DNA of 20,929 nucleotides from Promethearchaeota archaeon (GCA_027031765.1 JALVPN010000031.1:13685-34613), one strand, 5' to 3'. Positions 4,251-12,597 are shown, numbered from the stretch's first letter. Program-made: numbers and translations. Notes: a model not told the origin generated them from the sequence alone.

Positions 4251-7200
4251 CTACTGTCTGACCCGACTCCTCGTCAGGCGTGGCCCCAAGATGTCGTGGT
4301 AGAGACGCAGGTACGATGCGTCTGTCGAGACAAGGGCCAGAGGGCGCTCAGACTCAGTGGCACCACCCACCAACACCTCGCGGTCGTCAGCCACTGCCAT
4401 GAGCATGGGAACCCGCACCCACCATATGCGCCACCCCTTCGGGAGCTCCGTGCCCTCCGGGAGCTCTGTGCCCTCCGGCAGCACCAGCACCCTGCGGTGT
4501 CTTGCCTTGACCTTGGCAAGGCGCTTCATGTCGACGAACCCGACATCCGTCACCGAGAGGAGCACCGAGTCAGATGCACGACTTGCCATGTCCATCATGT
4601 GCGCACGGATCTCCTCTCGGCCAGTGATGAACCACGAGTGCTCCGGCGACACGGACTGGAGTAGTTCTACGGCCTCCTGTACCGATGCGAGCGCCGAGGC
4701 CGACTGTTCCACGGACGACGTTGTGGACTCTATCAGCTCTGTGACCTCGTTGGACAGTAGTTCAAGGGCCTCCTTCTGACCCCTAGACCACTCGCGGAAC
4801 ACCCTCTCAATCTTCGCACCGAGCTTGTTTAGTATCTCGTTCCGGCGCTGTCGTTCATCGGCGGTTGCCTCTGTCGTGGCATTGGTCACTGCCGTCACGG
4901 CATCCGACAGCTCGTGACCGGCCTGTACGACGTTCCCACGTAGGTCCTTCATGAGCGCATGCGACCTGTCACTGAAGTCGCTCTTCAGGCCAAGGCCAAT
5001 CGACTCGAACCTCCTAGATGCCGTTTGGTTGCTGGTAAGTGCGGCCTGGAGCGCAGACTCCAGCACGTGGTCGCGCGCCCCGAGGGCCTCCCTGATCCAC
5101 GAGTCTGTGAAAGTGTTGGCCTCCTTCACAGCGGCCTCGAGGGCCGTCTGGTACTCTTCGGCCCGGGCATCGAGCTGTCTCAGCACCTCATTCTTCTCCT
5201 GTCCAGTGCTGATGGAGGCCTCTTCAGCAATAGCAGTGGTGACATCACTTATGGACTGTGTGAGCGTGTCCAGCAGGCCCCGGGCATTGTCAAGGGCATC
5301 GGCACTCGTTGCAGCGAACTTGTCCGCATGGCTGTGGAGGACACCCTGTGCCTGTTGGAACATCTCCTCCGCAATTGACCCGAGGCTCTCTACCTGGGCA
5401 TTGCCCCTCTGCTCCACGCGAGACGCAGCCTCACGAGATGCATCTGTAAGGTACTGACGCATGCCCTCAATGTACTCCCTTATCTTCGTTGCCAGGCCTT
5501 CGAGGTCAGCGGTGAGTTGCGAGGCCGCGTTGTCGACTGCCATGGACACCGCATCGAACGCCATTGAGGCCTCCAGCTTGTGGCCGTCCACCTCTGTAGA
5601 TACTGCCTCTCTGGCTGAAGCACGCGCTTTCACGCCAGAGGTCTCGCTCTTCACAAGGGAGGCATGGTACGACTCGACAAGTGCTGCTGCGCTCTTGGCC
5701 ATGTCCGACGCAATCTTGTCGAGGGCCTTGCTCACACTGGTGACGGTCCGCTTGCCGGCATCACTCTCTTCAGATGTTAGGCGCTCGACCTCCGACTCTG
5801 TTGCAGACAGCGTCGCTTGGAGAGAGGTATGGAGCGCATCCCGGGTGCCCTGGAGGCGGCCAGTGACGTTGTCCCGGGCGCTCTTCACCGATGCCTCAAA
5901 CTCCCTTGACATCTGCACCATGCTGTCCCCGAGTTGCTGCACGGTACCGCTCTCGACCTCACGCAGGGCCTCCTCAGTGCCCCGTATCGCACCCTCCACC
6001 TGCTGGAGCACCCTGGCCATGGCCTCCGACATCTCATGGCGTTTCTCTGCCGTGAAGCTCTCAAGCGCCTCCTTTACTGCCCGCAGTGACCTTGTGGCCT
6101 CGTCAATCCGCTGCGCGACGAAGGACTTGAACTCAGTCCTCATCTTGGCCGAGTCCTCGCCGAGTGACGCGAGCTCGTTCTTGAGTGCGTTCTTGAACTC
6201 TGCGTGTGCCGTTGCAATGAGCTCATGTGCCTCGATGGTCTGGCTTGCGATGAGGCCGTTGAAAGTGGCCTCCATGCTCTGGGTCAGGTTGATGAACTGG
6301 CGGGTGATGTCCTCAAGGCGCATGTGGAACTCCTCACGGATGCCCCGGGCCTGCTCCTCAATGCTGGCCACCTGCTCGGAGATGTTCTGTTCCACCCGCT
6401 CCTCCATGCCCTCTGCCAGAGAGTTCAGACGGCCAATGCTGGAGGCCACCCGCTCGTCGAAACGCTTGCTCACGCTCTCATATATTGTCCGGGCCTCGTC
6501 CAAGTGCTTCTCAGCAGCAGTGTCGAGCTCCGAGAGGACCTCATTCAGACGGGCCCCCACACTTGACTCGAAGTCGTGTAGCGACTGTTTCATACCAGTG
6601 ATTGCGGTCTCGTGGCGTGTTGTGGTCGACACCAGTACGTTGCTGAATGCCGATTTGAGGCGGCTGCTCATGTTCTCCGCCAAGTTCACGAACTCTGTGG
6701 CCTCAGTGTCCAAGATTGATGCTATGTCTTCAAGAGCAGCCCTGAACCTGTCGTCGAGCATGGTAGTGGTCTGTTCGGCCCACTCGTCGAGCTGACCCTT
6801 GATGTTGTTCCCCGTCCCCTCTACGCGCCTCAGTGTAGACTTCATGTGTCGTCCGACCAGTCGTATGATGTCGCCCTTTGCCTCACCAAGTCGGGACTCA
6901 AAGTCTGTGGCTATGCTTGAGGACATCGTGCGGAGGGCACCATATTCCCGTGCGAGTTCAGAGTTCACCTTGTCGAGGAACCCGGTCAGGCTGTTCCGTA
7001 CGGCTTGGATGTAGGCGTTGTCAATCGACGCGACCTGGTCCAGGTGGGTCATGACGGAGCGTCGCCCCGACTCGACCGCATTCTTGGCGTCCTGCGACCA
7101 GGTGGCAATGTCAGCGTCGGCAGCTGCGACCTTTTCGGCAGCCTGCTGCACTGATACCATGACAAACTCCCTCAGGGCCGCGACCTCCTCACGGCCACGT

Positions 7201-8147
7201 CGCAACAGCTCGTCCAAGGCCTCGTGGGCAGCCTGGTACGCACTGTCGACCTCGTCGTCAAATGTTGAACGCACCTGTGACAGGTCAGTGGAAACAGCAT
7301 CGAGGACACCGACGCCAGCGGTCACAACGTTACCGGTCTGCGTGTGCAGGGCGTCGACGAACCTCTTCAGCACCGCTTCCAGGGCCGCCTCGAAAGAGGA
7401 CAGTGCCGAGTCGACAGCAGCACGTGTGCCCTCCACTACCGCACGGGCCTCCTCGTCAAGCCTTGTAATGGCTACGGCCGGCCCCGGACGCGCCCCCGCA
7501 AGCCACTTGTCGAAACTGGCACGTACTGCACCGAGCTCTGCAGTAAGGTCCTGCTGCACCCTGTCAAGGTCGGCCTGCAGGCGCTCAAGGCCGCTGCCGA
7601 AGCTGTCATCGATGAGCGAGTTCAAGCCTGAGACCATGTCGCTGACCCTGTCCGACATACTGGAGAGGGCCCCATTGGCGGCATCGACCACCTTCTCGAC
7701 CTGTGTCTGGGCCAAGGACGCGATGTTCTCCTCGTACCCGTCCATGACGCCCCGCACCTCATCGGCGGCCTCAGCAGAGGTGCGCGCCGACTCTGCCACT
7801 ATCGAGTCGAGCTGGCCCGAGTACTCCTTCAGTGCTGTGATGATTGATGACTGTGAGGCCGCCAGGCTGTCGACCAACGACTTGAGGAGGCCACCGACAC
7901 CCAGGTATGGGGGGAGAGCCCGGTACACAGGGACGACCCCTTCCAGTTGGATGACAAGCCCCTTCTTGACAAGCCGCTTCAGTGCGTTCCCGACGCGTGA
8001 GAGGGGCTCACCAGTGATCAACGCAACAGCCCCTGCAGTCATGTGGCCCCCAAGATAGATGGGGACCAGGACCTTCGCCTCTGTCTTTGACACACCCATA
8101 GCGGATGTCAGTACTGACACGACACGTTCCAGCTCACGAATGCTCAA
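4251..8147 (-). CDS. Giant TrmB-family protein, 1298 aa: N-terminal TrmB-like wHTH, ~1100-aa helical/coiled-coil insert, C-terminal TrmB effector-type domain
   Basis: N-terminus MGVSKTEAKVLVPIYLGGHMTAGAVALITGEPLSRVGNALKRLVKKGLV...YRALPP. C-terminus WFITGREEIRAHMMDMASRASDSVLL...LMAVADDREVLVG. TTG start supported by a GAGGTGA SD 8 nt upstream. Confidence 0.85.
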   Translation of the reverse strand: MSIRELERVVSVLTSAMGVSKTEAKVLVPIYLGGHMTAGAVALITGEPLSRVGNALKRLVKKGLVIQLEGVVPVYRALPPYLGVGGLLKSLVDSLAASQSSIITALKEYSGQLDSIVAESARTSAEAADEVRGVMDGYEENIASLAQTQVEKVVDAANGALSSMSDRVSDMVSGLNSLIDDSFGSGLERLQADLDRVQQDLTAELGAVRASFDKWLAGARPGPAVAITRLDEEARAVVEGTRAAVDSALSSFEAALEAVLKRFVDALHTQTGNVVTAGVGVLDAVSTDLSQVRSTFDDEVDSAYQAAHEALDELLRRGREEVAALREFVMVSVQQAAEKVAAADADIATWSQDAKNAVESGRRSVMTHLDQVASIDNAYIQAVRNSLTGFLDKVNSELAREYGALRTMSSSIATDFESRLGEAKGDIIRLVGRHMKSTLRRVEGTGNNIKGQLDEWAEQTTTMLDDRFRAALEDIASILDTEATEFVNLAENMSSRLKSAFSNVLVSTTTRHETAITGMKQSLHDFESSVGARLNEVLSELDTAAEKHLDEARTIYESVSKRFDERVASSIGRLNSLAEGMEERVEQNISEQVASIEEQARGIREEFHMRLEDITRQFINLTQSMEATFNGLIASQTIEAHELIATAHAEFKNALKNELASLGEDSAKMRTEFKSFVAQRIDEATRSLRAVKEALESFTAEKRHEMSEAMARVLQQVEGAIRGTEEALREVESGTVQQLGDSMVQMSREFEASVKSARDNVTGRLQGTRDALHTSLQATLSATESEVERLTSEESDAGKRTVTSVSKALDKIASDMAKSAAALVESYHASLVKSETSGVKARASAREAVSTEVDGHKLEASMAFDAVSMAVDNAASQLTADLEGLATKIREYIEGMRQYLTDASREAASRVEQRGNAQVESLGSIAEEMFQQAQGVLHSHADKFAATSADALDNARGLLDTLTQSISDVTTAIAEEASISTGQEKNEVLRQLDARAEEYQTALEAAVKEANTFTDSWIREALGARDHVLESALQAALTSNQTASRRFESIGLGLKSDFSDRSHALMKDLRGNVVQAGHELSDAVTAVTNATTEATADERQRRNEILNKLGAKIERVFREWSRGQKEALELLSNEVTELIESTTSSVEQSASALASVQEAVELLQSVSPEHSWFITGREEIRAHMMDMASRASDSVLLSVTDVGFVDMKRLAKVKARHRRVLVLPEGTELPEGTELPKGWRIWWVRVPMLMAVADDREVLVGGATESERPLALVSTDASYLRLYHDILGPRLTRSRVRQ
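4441..4476. repeat. Two-copy 18-bp tandem repeat inside the giant TrmB CDS
   Basis: gggagctccgtgccctcc / gggagctctgtgccctcc, 17/18 identical; gives LPEGTELPEGTELPKG on the minus strand. Confidence 0.9.
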
Positions 8148-9273: not shown

Positions 9274-10386
9274 TCAGCTGTTCCGGGCCATCTCCTTAAG
9301 CTTTGCACCCCACGTACGGATCTCCTTGCTGAGCCGTGCTATGTCGTTCTCGTTCAGCGTGGCCGTGGGCGGGTAGGACTTGAGTTCGCGGGCACGCTTT
9401 CCGAACTGGAACAGGACAGGGGTGTGGCCCTTTATCATTGTGGTGATCTGATCCCTGACACGCTCGAGTGCCGCGGCCATCTCATATGCCTCGGTGTGTG
9501 GAGTGACCATCTCAAGGAGGTAGTCCATAAGGCCATCAATCGTGGTCGGCAGTGGCTCGTCCGGAGCCACAGGATGACGGGCGGTGGTGACTGGGGCCTC
9601 GTCAGTGGTAGTGACCACCGGCGTAGACTCACGGACAGGCTGCACGGACTGTGCCACCTCCCTGACGAGTAACAGTGCCTCTGCAACCTCTTCAAGGGCC
9701 TTGTTGTACTTTCTCTCGATATCGTCCAGTTGCCGCACTATTATGCTCACAATCTCGCGGGTCTCGTTGAGGGACTCGCCGAGCTCGCTGACGTTGTCAC
9801 TGATCTGTGACACACTGGCGACGTACTCTTCAAGCGAGTCAATCTTCTTTGTCATCGTCTCGACATAGGGTGGGTCACGTAGGCCATCCACGACGCTGGC
9901 CACCGAGCTTACGGAGGCGAGCGTGTCGTCCATCTTCTTCAGGAGGACTTCAGTACCCATTGACTGCTGGATGTCGGCCAGCTGTTCTGCAAGTGCCTTC
10001 ACAGACGAGTGGGTCGACTCGATGCCCTCCCTCACAGCCTTGCCCGAGTTGCCAATCTTGTTCAGTGACGCGCCAATGCCCTGGAGCTTGCTATCAATGC
10101 CGTCCACTTTCTTCGATATTGCTGCTGTAGTCTTGGCGCTCGGCACCTTCTTCAGCGCATCATTCACAGCCTTCAGAGAGGACTCGATACCCTCAAGCCT
10201 CTCGACAGGTGCTATGGAACGCCCAATCTCTGCCACCGCAGACTCCAGAGAGCCGAGCCGCTCTTCAATTGCTGGCACCGCGGCCAGGACCTTGATGACC
10301 CCACGTATTGCTGCAATCTCCTGTGCAACCCTGTCAATCTTGTCCATTAGGCCAGCAATATCTGGTGAGTCAGGACTTTCAGACAT
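9274..10386 (-). CDS. Segmented coiled-coil protein with Thr/Pro linker and ~90-aa C-terminal helical domain, 370 aa
   Basis: Heptad runs such as I90-V94-I97-L101-I104-L108-I111; linker ~250-280; GGTAGGAG upstream of the ATG. Confidence 0.85.
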   Translation of the reverse strand: MSESPDSPDIAGLMDKIDRVAQEIAAIRGVIKVLAAVPAIEERLGSLESAVAEIGRSIAPVERLEGIESSLKAVNDALKKVPSAKTTAAISKKVDGIDSKLQGIGASLNKIGNSGKAVREGIESTHSSVKALAEQLADIQQSMGTEVLLKKMDDTLASVSSVASVVDGLRDPPYVETMTKKIDSLEEYVASVSQISDNVSELGESLNETREIVSIIVRQLDDIERKYNKALEEVAEALLLVREVAQSVQPVRESTPVVTTTDEAPVTTARHPVAPDEPLPTTIDGLMDYLLEMVTPHTEAYEMAAALERVRDQITTMIKGHTPVLFQFGKRARELKSYPPTATLNENDIARLSKEIRTWGAKLKEMARNS

Positions 10387-10525: not shown

Positions 10526-11350
10526 TCATAGCCTGCTGGCACGGACGACCTCGATGCCGAGCGACTCCAGCAGTGAGAAGAGGCGGGCCTTCTGCGGGGC
10601 GTTCGTCCCCTTCCAGTCAATGACTGCAAGGTCGACCTGTTCAGCAGCCCTAGTGACCATCTGCCGCACCAGCGACTCGTCCAGCCCCTCAATGACGTAT
10701 TTCGGGGCGATGTGACCGACCACAACATCACTCTCCAGTACCACCCGGTTGAACTTTGAGGCGTAGTGTGGACCACCAAAGCCAATGGCTGCAGTCCGTC
10801 CAACCTTGGCCCGGGCACACTCCATCACCGCTGCGGCCACAGCCTGTGCCCCCTTGATGTCCCGCCAGTGTGCCTCATCGCTGCCGAGCTCTACGAACAA
10901 GAGGGGGGTGTCCATCGAGGTCGGGCCATGGTGTGTGACCTCAAGGGTCACATCAAATGCGTCAAGTGACAGGGCATCACGCTGTTCGTGTAGGGTCTGT
11001 AGGGCCACCGCCACCAGGCTGGCGACAGAACAGGACACCTCACGTGGGTTGCCGCCGTACTCTGCATCGGAGGTGAGGTTGCCCGTACTGTGTACAAGTA
11101 GGGCCGGACGACCGGACTCTGACCGGTGACGAGAGCAGAAGATGAAGACATCAGGGTGAAAGTGTTCCTCAAGATGACCTGCAAAAATGAGGTCCCTCTC
11201 AGTAGTTATCAGCAGTGTCCCCCTGTCGCACGAGTACACAGGGCTGCCCTCGAAGTGTTCGCCGGTCTCCTCGAAACCATGCTCGTGGATGAGGACGTCC
11301 TTGATTGTCTGGCTGGCCAGGTCACGTTGCGATGTGACCAGCACCCTCAC
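10526..11350 (-). CDS. dtdA: Archaeal D-aminoacyl-tRNA deacylase (DtdA/GEK1 family)
   Basis: FCSRHRSESGRPALLVHSTGN, EVTHHGPT, FVELGS and FGGPHYA motifs. GTG start overlaps the upstream stop. Confidence 0.92.
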   Translation of the reverse strand: MRVLVTSQRDLASQTIKDVLIHEHGFEETGEHFEGSPVYSCDRGTLLITTERDLIFAGHLEEHFHPDVFIFCSRHRSESGRPALLVHSTGNLTSDAEYGGNPREVSCSVASLVAVALQTLHEQRDALSLDAFDVTLEVTHHGPTSMDTPLLFVELGSDEAHWRDIKGAQAVAAAVMECARAKVGRTAAIGFGGPHYASKFNRVVLESDVVVGHIAPKYVIEGLDESLVRQMVTRAAEQVDLAVIDWKGTNAPQKARLFSLLESLGIEVVRASRL

Positions 11351-12597
11351 ACGGCCTCACCCCGTTCAGCTTCGCACAGTTCCAGCAGCGGCTCGAGCCG
11401 GGCATCCACCTTCAACCTGACCTTCTCGCCAAAGGCATCGAGGATTTCGGACTCAATCCTGGTGCGGTACTCCTCGATGCGTTCCAGCTGACGCTTGATC
11501 TCGTCGCGTATCCGCAGGAGGTCGTTCGTATGGTACTCGAGGTTCTTGCGTGCCTCCTCAAGGGCCTCTTGCAGACGGCGGTTCTCTGCATAGACATCTG
11601 AACCGGCGAACCTGCGGCGTCGTTCCTCAATGGACTTTGCCTGGACCTGGAGCTCCCGCAGTGAGCCACGCGATATTGCTTCGATTTCCTCGATGGCCCG
11701 TCGGGCAAGGCGGTCCTTCAGTGGGAGACGTCCCTGCTCGATTGCGGTACGCAGCGCGCTAAGGCCCTCGACCAGACCCGGATGCCCATCCGGCTCGTTG
11801 ACAATTGCGGTGTACGGGTCCTCGAAGTAGTCAGTGAGAGCCCTCAGACCCTCTGGCGGCACGCGGACACCATGGTCGTGCTGGAGGAACTTCTTCACCT
11901 GTTTCTTCAGCGGGTTGAGCTTCATACGCAGGACCGCAGCCAAGTGGTCAGCCTCCTGGTCAAGGTTCAGCAGCTCGGCCACGTTGGACTCGCGGGTGAA
12001 CTCGTCGTACGCCTGCTTTGCCAGCTCGTACTCCCTGCGTGCCTGCTCTATCTTCTGGCGCACCTGACGTATCTGCTCCTCAAAGGACTCCCTAGCGCGG
12101 CCCAACTCCCGAAGGGTATCGATACGGGTGCCAATCCTCTCAAGGTCTTTCAGCCAGCTGAACTCGTAGAGGAGCTTTCCAATCCGCTTCATCTCACGTG
12201 CAAGCTCCTTCATGTAGACGTCCAGCTGCTTGATGGTACCCTTGTGGCGCTTGTCCATCCGCCGGATCCAGCGGGCCCCGGCACCCCAGAGCTCCTGGAT
12301 GAACCGCTGCACCTCCTCTTGGAGCATCTCGGTCGACTCGTAGGAGATCTCCTTCGTGACGTAGAAGCTGTTCACAATCTCCTCGATCTTCATGGCAAAG
12401 CGGGCCGCAATGCCAACAGAGTCGGACGAGTCCTCGACATCAGAGTCGCGGAGGCTCTTAGAGACCTCTTGGATGTCTTTCAGTGCACTCTCCACAATCC
12501 GGTAGCTCTTCTCAGCCTGCTTCACAAAGTCCTTGGACCTCTTGGCCAGCTGCTTACGATACCATTTTTCCAACTGCTCAACGGTCAGGGTCGTCAT
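11347..12597 (-). CDS. Charged coiled-coil protein of unknown function, 416 aa
   Basis: E/K/R/Q-rich helical arms (~150-225 and ~310-388) flank a Pro/Gly-containing central segment; no Walker A motif. Confidence 0.85.
   Translation of the reverse strand: MTTLTVEQLEKWYRKQLAKRSKDFVKQAEKSYRIVESALKDIQEVSKSLRDSDVEDSSDSVGIAARFAMKIEEIVNSFYVTKEISYESTEMLQEEVQRFIQELWGAGARWIRRMDKRHKGTIKQLDVYMKELAREMKRIGKLLYEFSWLKDLERIGTRIDTLRELGRARESFEEQIRQVRQKIEQARREYELAKQAYDEFTRESNVAELLNLDQEADHLAAVLRMKLNPLKKQVKKFLQHDHGVRVPPEGLRALTDYFEDPYTAIVNEPDGHPGLVEGLSALRTAIEQGRLPLKDRLARRAIEEIEAISRGSLRELQVQAKSIEERRRRFAGSDVYAENRRLQEALEEARKNLEYHTNDLLRIRDEIKRQLERIEEYRTRIESEILDAFGEKVRLKVDARLEPLLELCEAERGEAV

Follow-up and report, generated by a model that had tools for sequence, protein, structure and literature searches.

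The locus analysed here raises the question of what a protein does that carries a TrmB-type module at either end and more than one thousand helical residues in between. It lies in a 20,929-nt stretch of DNA from a Promethearchaeota archaeon (the window), and a preliminary description had read it as a TrmB regulator split by a long helical rod. The gene (Table 1) forms a reading frame that is uninterrupted in the window and starts with a TTG codon, ahead of which a Shine-Dalgarno-like motif (GAGGTGA) is found; an upstream extension is impossible, as a stop codon lies one codon before the TTG. Orthologs of about 1,300 aa appeared in nearly all genomes of the source's taxonomic family, and the length distribution suggested earlier as a check turned out to span 1,295-1,316 aa for 22 of the family's 24 genomes compared.

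The protein is soluble, Cys-free and strongly acidic, with a charge of about -60 in the rod, and scanning it for a signal peptide, a hydrophobic leader or a transmembrane segment returned none; its setting is the archaeal cytoplasm. A proline-poor helix of ~1,070 residues separates the N-terminal winged helix-turn-helix (wHTH) from the C-terminal domain. The middle region (residues 96-1160) comprises 14.2% Ala, 10.6% Glu, 10.3% Ser and 8.9% Leu, while the rod has no Cys and only two Pro in 1,055 residues (at 221 and 223), a composition count that agrees with the Ala/Glu/Ser/Leu-rich, almost Pro-free helix initially reported.

Table 1. Features of the rod gene and of the gene upstream of it, in window coordinates
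Feature	Residues	Nucleotides	Strand	Basis
Rod gene, whole, stop codon included	1298 aa	4251..8147	(-)	ORF and translation
N-terminal wHTH (head half 1)	~14-90	7878..8108	(-)	PF01978
N-side neck helix, up to joint Gly184	~96-183	7599..7862	(-)	AF2 break 182-189
Outgoing arm, hendecad helix	~190-614 (425 aa)	6306..7580	(-)	11/3 periodicity
Conserved tip, turn 615-619	~596-672	6132..6362	(-)	Conservation, AF2 loop, mirror centre
Returning arm, hendecad helix	~622-1046 (425 aa)	5010..6284	(-)	Mirrored conservation
C-side neck helix, from joint Gly1051	~1054-1160	4668..4988	(-)	AF2 break 1047-1053
C-terminal PLD-like domain (head half 2)	~1165-1298	4254..4655	(-)	Foldseek, PF11495
Five-Cys partner gene, orphan, 60 nt upstream of the rod gene	268 aa	8208..9014	(-)	Alignment

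Domains at the two ends

The Pfam profile PF01978 (TrmB) matched residues 16-80 (profile positions 3-67 of 68) with 32.4 bits in the whole protein and 37.3 bits when residues 1-110 were used alone, the gathering cut-off being 25.6 bits. In the ortholog alignment, the conserved residues of the wHTH were G34, N35, T37, G39, V52, L56, L59, G63 and G70, and the recognition-helix string quoted in the preliminary description (GEPLSRVGNAL) is present at residues 46-56. The recognition helix has only one conserved basic residue, and the net charge of the wHTH, +5 in this protein, averaged +0.7 in the orthologs (range -3 to +5). Thus, unlike typical nucleoid proteins, the wHTH is not basic and the whole chain is acidic. 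Moreover, DNA binding by the head is not assured, since a winged helix can also mediate contacts between proteins.

In the C-terminal domain, PF11495 (Regulator_TrmB) gave a weak match in the rod protein (E 0.02, 14.4 bits vs. a cut-off of 22.2), limited to profile positions 3-98 of 233; the same first part was matched in 14 of 23 orthologs, with a best E of 1.5e-6. The NCBIfam model tran_reg_TrmB scored 13 bits against a cut-off of 600, and a profile of the C-terminal 159 residues found nothing among PDB sequences at E up to 10. On the other hand, when a model of this domain with its preceding helix (the wHTH being excluded) was searched with Foldseek, TrmBL2 chains occupied ranks 1-4, 6, 7 and 9 (E 2.8e-5 to 2.4e-4, probability 1.0, TMt 0.34-0.39), headed by 5bqt, 5bpi and 5bpd at about 3e-5; the TrmB structures 2f5t and 3qph were also recovered, as were the PLD-fold proteins NucT, Nuc and Zucchini. 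The kinship of this domain to TrmB and TrmBL2 is therefore visible only at the level of Pfam profiles and fold. Furthermore, no His or Lys was found in the domain columns at least 85% conserved, and the catalytic PLD motif HxK(x)4D is absent. The prediction of a complex between residues 2-190 and 1045-1298 (score 0.30, mark 0.32) was counted neither way.

Both termini are thus of the TrmB type, as had been proposed, the first by PF01978 above its cut-off and the second by PF11495 in the orthologs and by Foldseek, so that neither end failed the domain profiles. We infer that they jointly build a TrmBL2-type head, predicted to bind DNA.

Periodicity and conservation of the rod

The segment between the two ends did not fold as known compact repeats. 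Its hydrophobic pattern had a power of 19.0 at the 11/3 (hendecad) period, far beyond chance (at most 1.4 among 200 shuffled sequences), and no power at 3.5. Among the 1,369 frames of at least 300 aa in the genome, an 11/3 power above 4 was reached only by this gene and one paralog, while even the strongest heptad-type frames peaked at a 7/2 power near 4. The local 11/3 phase was constant across residues ~100-330 and ~360-1160, with one shift of ~1 residue in register near residue 340 of the outgoing arm, and the core positions of the 11-residue repeat were a, d, e and h. The rod, phase-coherent in this periodicity, is not a heptad coiled coil. Autocorrelation revealed generic 11n periodicity only, with neither a dominant repeat unit nor 22-mer repeats.

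Within the rod, conservation was highest at the tip, which bears a ladder of phenylalanines (F607, F618, F629 and F651) together with H608, E626, Q636, H648 and E658. Two glycines also stood out in the ortholog alignment, G184 (91% conserved) and G1051 (87%), which are mirror partners (184+1051=1235).

Evidence for a fold-back rod

The conservation profile of the rod was mirror-symmetric around residues 619-621 (r 0.72-0.81; 0.66-0.81 for the returning arm against the outgoing one), and the correlation was still 0.67-0.75 after removing the central ±150 residues, the best translational control reaching 0.44. In the full-length AlphaFold2 (AF2) model, which is of low confidence (pLDDT 65, pTM 0.27), helix breaks at residues 182-189, 615-621 and 1047-1053 delimited arms of 425 and 426 residues; additional non-helical stretches (495-533 and 840-871) had no mirror partners. 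When residues 470-770 were modelled alone, the result was an antiparallel hairpin whose two helices are connected through a loop at 615-619 (pLDDT 86). This model superposed over its full length on antiparallel hairpins, in particular that of the chemoreceptor (MCP) 2ch7 (294 of 301 residues), where the Z of 12.1 falls in the range common to any long helical hairpin. Other matches were the hairpins of Smc (5nnv, 5xg2) and Rad50 (7zr1), and Maxi (4ke2) with an rmsd of 2.5 Å over 196 residues.

Rods of other lengths behaved in the same way. The mirror centre lay 8.5-9 residues before the midpoint of the head halves in the classes of 1,075, about 1,536, 861 and 747 residues, and 5.5-7 residues ahead of it in the 707-residue class; such a near-constant offset across five length classes implies that both arms lengthen or shorten together. 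The mirror analysis was ambiguous for the 761-aa class, where the mean identity is 75%. Covariation (mutual information with APC, 38 sequences) had its peak in a 7-wide anti-diagonal band at i+j=1238 (t 11.2), and column-shuffled controls peaked at the same location (t 5.2-6.9), so that much of the signal reflects the mirrored entropy profile and the support it lends to a fold-back is weak.

The rod is most likely a stiff antiparallel fold-back with arms of ~520 residues and a length of ~75-80 nm. The single continuous rod of ~1,100 residues supposed at first, which would measure ~160 nm, is not the best reading, given the mirrored conservation, the paired glycines, the AF2 hairpin and the lockstep arms.

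We infer that the pairing is intramolecular. Mirror symmetry and lockstep arms fit equally well with an intermolecular antiparallel dimer, in which two extended chains would form a rod of ~155 nm where, at each end, one chain's wHTH meets its partner's C-domain, acting as a two-headed DNA-DNA bridge. The G184/G1051 pairing is also expected from such a homodimer, which would likewise reconstitute TrmBL2-like heads. However, the predicted loop at 615-619 and the confidence of the hairpin (pLDDT 86) speak for a turn, the placement of the most conserved block at the exact centre is more in keeping with a functional tip than with a dyad, and in the class of about 1,536 residues a proline at position 872 stands beside the mirror centre (874), all of which make the homodimer unlikely.

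Length constraint and distribution

Of 22 orthologs, 21 (24-34% identical) aligned along the rod without any indel, and in the remaining, most distant one the indels summed to zero. About 45 proteins, among them members of another family with ~20% identity, had a spacing of exactly 1,075 residues between the head halves (end of the wHTH to start of the C-domain). That the length is kept exactly over more than 1,000 residues, despite a drift to 20-30% identity, argues that the physical distance itself is selected, as would hold for the roles of a ruler, a strut or a tether. Steps between rod lengths (class boundaries being HMM projections) were also compared with multiples of 11 or 22, and no quantisation is claimed: 1537-1075=462 and 861-575=286 fit, while 1075-861=214 and others do not.

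The family was matched in 260 of the 301 sampled genomes of the Asgard phylum, and two or three copies per genome were frequent. Its named members are all from Asgard archaea, to which it is apparently restricted, and no description of it was found in the literature searched. The public labels of its members, 'sugar-specific transcriptional regulator TrmB' or 'hypothetical protein', are misleading or uninformative.

The gene upstream and its neighbourhood

The protein encoded upstream has five invariant cysteines (C37-x2-C40-x6-C47-x5-C53 ... C76) and had no match in Pfam, NCBIfam or PDB sequences, nor did the ESM Atlas give anything usable. Its gene immediately preceded that of the rod protein in eight Asgard families (f1, f2, f3, f7, f8, f15, f21 and f28), while in families f9, f12 and f19 the two do not adjoin. 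An apparent fusion of both in one genome (G258, a '1582 aa' frame) was discarded, the locus having two separate ORFs. Genes for further helical proteins (370 aa, of heptad type, and 416 aa) are found nearby, in an order conserved within the family. Outside families f1 and f2, only the five-Cys gene keeps its linkage to the rod gene. Pfam scans of the adjacent ORFs in the window returned no ATPase, and the listed ORFs beside the paralog of this genome gave no sign of a three-gene ATPase operon. Among sequencing runs, no RNA run was listed with the locus; the single run that contains it is a hydrothermal-vent metagenome, probably the origin of the DNA.

Proposed explanation and its alternatives

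TrmBL2 is a chromatin protein of the Thermococcales that binds DNA and does not act as a sensor. Since the sugar-binding half is absent and the best fold match is this non-sensing protein, sugar sensing is a less plausible role than a structural one. The explanation we favour, with a probability of roughly 55%, is that a TrmBL2-type head and a fold-back hendecad rod form a DNA-anchored tether, spacer or bridge of fixed length. Where a TrmBL2-like protein has its short linker helix, a giant antiparallel helical hairpin would have taken over, with the wHTH (residues ~14-90) and the PLD-like domain (~1165-1298) meeting as a single TrmBL2-type head. Residues ~96-614 would run outward and ~620-1160 back, producing a straight rod of roughly 75-80 nm on the a/d/e/h repeat, with the matched glycine joint G184/G1051 near the head and the tip (596-672) at the far end. 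By analogy with TrmB proteins, which are dimeric, two such hairpins probably associate as a four-helix bundle. The head would most likely sit on DNA as TrmBL2 does, and the rod would keep the tip, or a partner bound at the tip or the head, at a fixed distance from the DNA; the co-transcribed five-Cys protein is the candidate for such a partner and may bind there. The role would then be that of a tether, spacer or bridge in nucleoid organization, and not ligand-sensing regulation. A tether or spacer had already been preferred to a sugar sensor in the preliminary description; the missing sugar-binding half makes this choice more plausible, while DNA binding and tethering keep the standing of predictions.

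Less probable is a TrmB-type ligand-sensing transcription factor whose rod would conduct a signal as a four-helix bundle, an input at the tip controlling whether the head binds DNA. One example of such an input would be the state of the five-Cys partner, redox or metal. The TrmB wHTH, the invariant Cys cluster of the partner and the chemoreceptor hairpin 2ch7 as best whole-model match of the tip (Z 12.1) are consistent with a sensor, and chemoreceptors likewise are most conserved at the tip, fall into discrete length classes and have indels placed symmetrically. Nevertheless, a Z of ~12 is usual for any long helical hairpin, the rod is hendecad and not heptad, PF00015 is absent at E up to 1 and the sugar-binding subdomain is missing; moreover, we know of no precedent for signal transmission over ~75 nm to a DNA-binding head. 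A sensor is thus quite unlikely, and the TrmBL2-type head, the fixed-length rod and the undescribed, apparently Asgard-only family together make a chromosome-anchored spacer or tether the likelier reading.

A cytoskeletal or filament-forming coiled-coil protein, with the winged helix as a protein-protein module devoid of a DNA role, appears improbable. The near-neutral wHTH, the acidic protein and the adjoining genes for helical proteins (370 and 416 aa) in conserved order would suit it, but beyond families f1 and f2 only the five-Cys gene stays linked, the head combines the two modules found in a chromatin protein known to bind DNA, and fixed-length hairpins with globular heads are atypical as filament subunits. 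Finally, a giant amphipathic helix coating a lipid or hydrophobic surface in the style of apolipoproteins, perilipin-4, phasins or LEA proteins, and anchored by its TrmB domains, is very improbable: the 11/3 periodicity is a hallmark of surface-bound amphipathic helices and PF01442 (Apolipoprotein) scored 117.5 bits over five stretches (cut-off 90), with weaker ApoLp-III and Phasin matches, but this score mirrors common periodicity and composition in a rod with two Pro and no 22-mer repeats, the polar face is strongly acidic and lacks the Lys/Arg belt of class A helices, signal peptide and transmembrane segment are absent, and a surface coat would not be expected to have an invariant length, mirrored conservation, matched joints or a conserved tip.

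Among known prokaryotes, Asgard archaea are the most closely related to eukaryotes, and the spatial organization of their DNA is largely unknown. A tentative extension of the tether reading is that the protein could be an undescribed, ATP-independent device of chromosome architecture, in which a DNA-clamped head carries a rigid, length-quantised hendecad rod of four helices whose tip, with a metal- or redox-active five-Cys partner, would dock to another cellular structure or to a second rod. Under this extension, rod lengths would range by lineage from about 20 to 125 nm, and, if it is true, the distance from DNA to that structure would be fixed by a molecular ruler for nucleoid positioning. 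The question raised is then what sits ~75 nm away from the DNA in Asgard cells. In addition, the rod offers coiled-coil structural biology and protein design a natural, very long and straight hendecad bundle.

Comparison with known systems

The closest known counterparts are TrmBL2 (5bqt, 5bpi, 5bpd, 5box) and TrmB (3qph, 2f5t), which share with the rod protein the PF01978 wHTH and a PLD-like C-domain lacking the HKD motif; as in TrmBL2, the sugar-binding second subdomain is also absent. In contrast, the linker of these proteins is a single short coiled-coil helix in a total of ~260-340 aa (~250-350 aa for the TrmB family), whereas the rod protein has 1,298 aa, of which 1,070 are inserted, and adds a conserved tip, a non-basic head and a paired five-Cys gene.

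SMC, Rad50 and MukB would resemble the proposed fold-back in having their termini joined as a head by a very long antiparallel arm (predicted to be intramolecular here), a conserved apex (the hinge or zinc hook) and a constrained arm length, and the tip model aligns to the arms of Smc and Rad50. However, the ABC ATPase head and P-loop are absent from the rod protein (Pfam and NCBIfam, whole protein), its rod is hendecad compared with their interrupted heptads, there is no sequence homology, and neither kleisin nor kite partners were recognised. The cytoplasmic hairpin of chemoreceptors (2ch7) is likewise a long antiparallel hairpin that dimerizes as a four-helix bundle (predicted for the rod) and is most conserved at its tip. 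Apart from the missing signalling domain, for which PF00015 was searched, the rod differs from it in an 11- instead of 7-residue periodicity, in being several times longer and cytoplasmic with no membrane anchor, and in a head that is a DNA-binding-type module.

Apolipoproteins A-I, A-IV and E and apolipophorin-III share the 11/3 hydrophobic periodicity, with PF01442 above its cut-off in the rod. Nevertheless, they consist of Pro-punctuated 22-mers and have a secretion signal, both lacking in the rod protein, which in turn has a mirror-symmetric rod of exactly conserved length and a head of TrmB type; common periodicity, and not descent, accounts best for the match.

Head modules at both ends of the rod protein

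The rod gene is a single open reading frame of 1298 codons with a TTG start and a GAGGTGA motif a few bases 5′ of it; as a stop lies one codon 5′ of the start, no longer frame is possible. At the N-terminus of the product (the rod protein), the TrmB winged helix of Pfam (PF01978) was found at residues 16-80, with 32.4 bits in the whole protein and 37.3 bits in residues 1-110 (cut-off 25.6 bits). At the other end, the match to PF11495 (Regulator_TrmB) in the last ~135 residues was weak (E 0.02, profile positions 3-98 of 233), and this profile was matched by 14 of 23 orthologous C-termini (best E 1.5e-6). An AlphaFold2 model of residues 100-1298, built from a 23-ortholog alignment, had a pLDDT of 65 overall and of 63-86 (10-residue block means) across most of the C-domain. 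Its top Foldseek matches were the TrmBL2 chains 5bqt, 5bpi and 5bpd (E about 3e-5, probability 1.0), followed by NucT, Zucchini and Nuc of the PLD fold, and then by TrmB (2f5t, 3qph). The HKD motif of PLD proteins is absent, since no conserved His or Lys occurs in the C-domain. The TrmB-type nature of both ends, as claimed in the preliminary description, is thus borne out by PF01978 at the N-terminus and by the ortholog PF11495 and the TrmBL2/TrmB Foldseek matches at the C-terminus, and the unusual recognition-helix string quoted there is present in the protein. A TrmBL2-type head is split between the two termini of one chain. The winged helix is not basic, and the protein as a whole is very acidic.

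Hendecad periodicity of the rod

The long insert between the termini, previously described as A/E/S/L-rich and poor in proline, was found as such at residues 96-1160, with two Pro and no Cys. The Fourier spectrum of its hydrophobic residues had one sharp peak, at a period of 3.665 (11/3) and with a power of 19.0, compared to a mean of 0.58 and a maximum of 1.4 in 200 shuffles, and no signal was found at period 3.5. The hydrophobic residues sit at hendecad positions a, e, h and partly d, while no long sequence repeat was found, only 11n periodicity. The hendecad phase holds steady over residues ~100-330; after a shift of about one residue near position 340, it hardly changes up to ~1160.

A total of 1369 frames of at least 300 aa in the 2.95-Mb source genome were scanned for 11/3 power (99th percentile 1.74), the only two outliers being the rod gene (14.2) and a second family member of 1097 aa, whose signal is stronger (15.8); heptad-type frames reached a 7/2 power of only up to about 4. 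The third-highest 11/3 power (3.6) was that of a 575-aa frame on the minus strand of contig C128, which could be a short relative of the rod protein or a different hendecad protein. Furthermore, a peak at 3.66-3.68 was common to all 36 relatives examined.

Fixed rod length and distribution of the family

Of 24 other genomes in this taxonomic family, 22 encode an ortholog of about 1295-1320 aa (20-34% identity), and a further ortholog came from the sister family. In the MAFFT alignment, rod indels were absent in 21 of 22 orthologs, save one 1-residue gap in one of them, and the seven indels of the most distant ortholog (20% identity) summed to zero. Module spacing was measured in about 120 family members by mapping the winged-helix and C-domain HMMs, and came to exactly 1075 residues in about 45 proteins, two of which belong to another family and share only about 20% identity. 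Fixed spacings of 575, 707, 747, 794, 861, 1007 and 1536-1537 residues were seen in other lineages, and the 861 class, to which the 1097-aa paralog belongs, likewise did not vary in length between genomes, at about 27% identity. That the spacing is exactly 1075 residues in different lineages is a new result. A complete metagenomic member of 350 aa (P0104) has only about 120 residues from winged helix to C-domain, and may either preserve a short ancestral form or have been shortened secondarily.

The window comes from an archaeal metagenome-assembled genome, 95% complete, of a hydrothermal-vent metagenome. Of the 301 genomes sampled from the phylum, 260 had a match to a profile of the C-neck and C-domain, nearly always located where a long frame ends. 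Among 1.84 billion library representatives, this profile matched only 409 proteins (340 to 1907 aa; E up to 1e-3). The named database relatives are labelled Thorarchaeota, Promethearchaeota, Jordarchaeaceae and Njordarchaeia, one with a second, Korarchaeota, label and another with a Lokiarchaeota label, and are annotated as 'hypothetical', 'HTH domain-containing' or 'sugar-specific transcriptional regulator TrmB'. The family therefore occurs in most Asgard genomes sampled, and every named member is from Asgard archaea.

Probable fold-back of the rod

Conservation in the rod is highest at its centre (residues 596-672), in which Phe at 607, 618, 629 and 651 are spaced by 11 or 22 residues and H608, E626, Q636, H648 and E658 are also conserved. 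The smoothed conservation profile mirrors about residue 619-621, with r of 0.72-0.81 over about 505 residue pairs and of 0.67-0.75 without the central ±150 residues, compared to a background of 0.06-0.19 at other centres (SD 0.24-0.31) and to 0.44 for the best translational control. Moreover, only two other glycines are strongly conserved, G184 and G1051, and their positions mirror each other (184 + 1051 = 1235). The hendecad rod is of frozen length and mirror-symmetric, with a conserved centre.

The full-length AlphaFold2 model, of low confidence and with two non-helical stretches lacking a mirror match, has helix breaks at 182-189, 615-621 and 1047-1053, so that the arms measure 425 and 426 residues. 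When residues 470-770 were modelled separately (pLDDT 85.9), two helices with a loop at 615-619 resulted, and this model superposes over its full length on known antiparallel hairpins, namely the chemoreceptor 2ch7 (Z 12.1, 294 residues aligned), the Smc arm fragments 5nnv and 5xg2, the Rad50 arm 7zr1 and the hendecad antifreeze protein Maxi 4ke2 (rmsd 2.5 Å over 196 residues).

Relative to the point halfway between the head modules, the mirror centre of conservation hardly moved among five length classes, lying before that midpoint by 8.5 residues (class 1075), 9 residues (classes 1536 and 861), 8.5-9 residues (747) and 5.5-7 residues (707). Across classes that differ by more than 800 residues, both arms have therefore changed length jointly; this constant apex offset is also new here. 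Aggregated covariation, which peaks at i+j=1238 with about half of the signal reproduced by column-shuffled controls, lends weak support.

Since the conserved centre, the mirror symmetry, the glycine pair with the helix breaks, the hairpin model and the joint change in arm length agree, the rod most likely folds back on itself, with arms of ~520 residues (roughly 75-80 nm). The same mirror pattern would fit two extended chains in an antiparallel dimer equally well, and the two arrangements are not separated with certainty; however, the central loop, the conserved tip and a Pro adjoining the centre in the sister class 1536 favour the intramolecular hairpin, and the dimer is considered unlikely.

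The register shift at residues ~330-360 (window ~7068-7157) adjoins Trp350, conserved at 96%, and the residues that mirror it (about 885-900) show a wobble in phase together with G886, conserved at 70%. The two sites may form an elbow or a matched discontinuity in both arms.

A five-Cys protein encoded beside the rod gene

The genes around the rod gene are listed in the table. The gene order is the same throughout the family (416-aa helical protein, DTD2, 370-aa coiled coil, 268-aa protein, rod gene and a convergent GNAT gene), while in distant lineages beyond it the 268-aa gene alone remains linked to the rod gene. It lies directly upstream in eight families (f1, f2, f3, f7, f8, f15, f21 and f28) and elsewhere in the genome in f9, f12 and f19; no such gene lies beside the 1097-aa paralog. 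Single-copy in 215 of 301 Asgard genomes, it encodes exactly five Cys (C37-x2-C40-x6-C47-x5-C53 ... C76), which are invariant in 15 aligned homologs, as is N159-P160. No Pfam, NCBIfam or PDB-sequence match and no relative of known function was detected for the five-Cys protein, which is a candidate partner of the rod protein and may bind a metal or an Fe-S cluster. The partnership of the two genes is conserved, and this pairing is a further new result.

Features of the window and the paralog of the source genome
Feature	Coordinates	Strand	Remarks
ORF, 653 aa	74-2035	-	kept downstream of rod gene within family
ORF, 211 aa	2184-2819	-	kept downstream of rod gene within family
ORF, 182 aa	2906-3454	-	kept downstream of rod gene within family; 7 Cys
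Rod gene	4251-8147	-	
Five-Cys orphan protein, 268 aa	8208-9014	-	gene ends 60 nt before rod-gene start
370-aa protein	9274-10386	-	heptad-type (period 3.5) coiled-coil N-half; weak matches to many coiled-coil families
416-aa helical protein	11347-12597	-	no family assignment; 57-65% identity within family
Arf-family small GTPase, 276 aa	16831-17661	-	PF00025, E 1.7e-9; N-terminal extension of about 95 residues
Second family member, 1097 aa	contig C143:19882-23175 (locus L002 979-4272)	+	rod exactly 861 residues

The 370-aa gene holds the same position in all f1 and f2 loci and is not found there in more distant lineages. The 416-aa protein is more conserved than the rod protein, and its gene overlaps the start of DTD2 by 4 nt, so that the two are probably co-transcribed. 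The window encodes an archaeal D-aminoacyl-tRNA deacylase (DTD2) and an Arf-family GTPase, the latter a typical Asgard 'eukaryotic signature' protein and consistent with the origin inferred for the window. The 653-, 211- and 182-aa ORFs had no Pfam or NCBIfam match. Pfam scans of ORFs neighbouring the rod gene in the window gave no ATPase, and by ORF listing no three-gene operon with an ATPase lies beside the 1097-aa paralog.

Interpretation and comparison with known systems

We infer that the rod forms an intramolecular hairpin and that two hairpins probably pair into a four-helix bundle, as the TrmB proteins dimerise and a seam as wide as a/d/e/h fits bundles of three or more helices. The head probably binds DNA in the TrmBL2 fashion, and the tip or the head may engage the five-Cys protein or a different structure. 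The rod protein would then act as a chromosome-bound tether, spacer or bridge of fixed length. A chemoreceptor-like, signal-conducting regulator is about as unlikely as the antiparallel dimer, and a DNA-independent cytoskeletal element is improbable. Least probable is an amphipathic helix coating lipid, which accounts for an above-cut-off PF01442 match and leaves the symmetry and the length constraint unexplained.

TrmBL2 itself is a known chromatin protein and Smc roadblock (PMC11840125). A full-text search of the literature on TrmB/TrmBL2, coiled-coil, hendecad, winged-helix, SMC-like and Asgard proteins found no description of such a protein. The family belongs to the TrmB superfamily and has an SMC- or chemoreceptor-like geometry, and there is a real chance that it is a new kind of cellular device.
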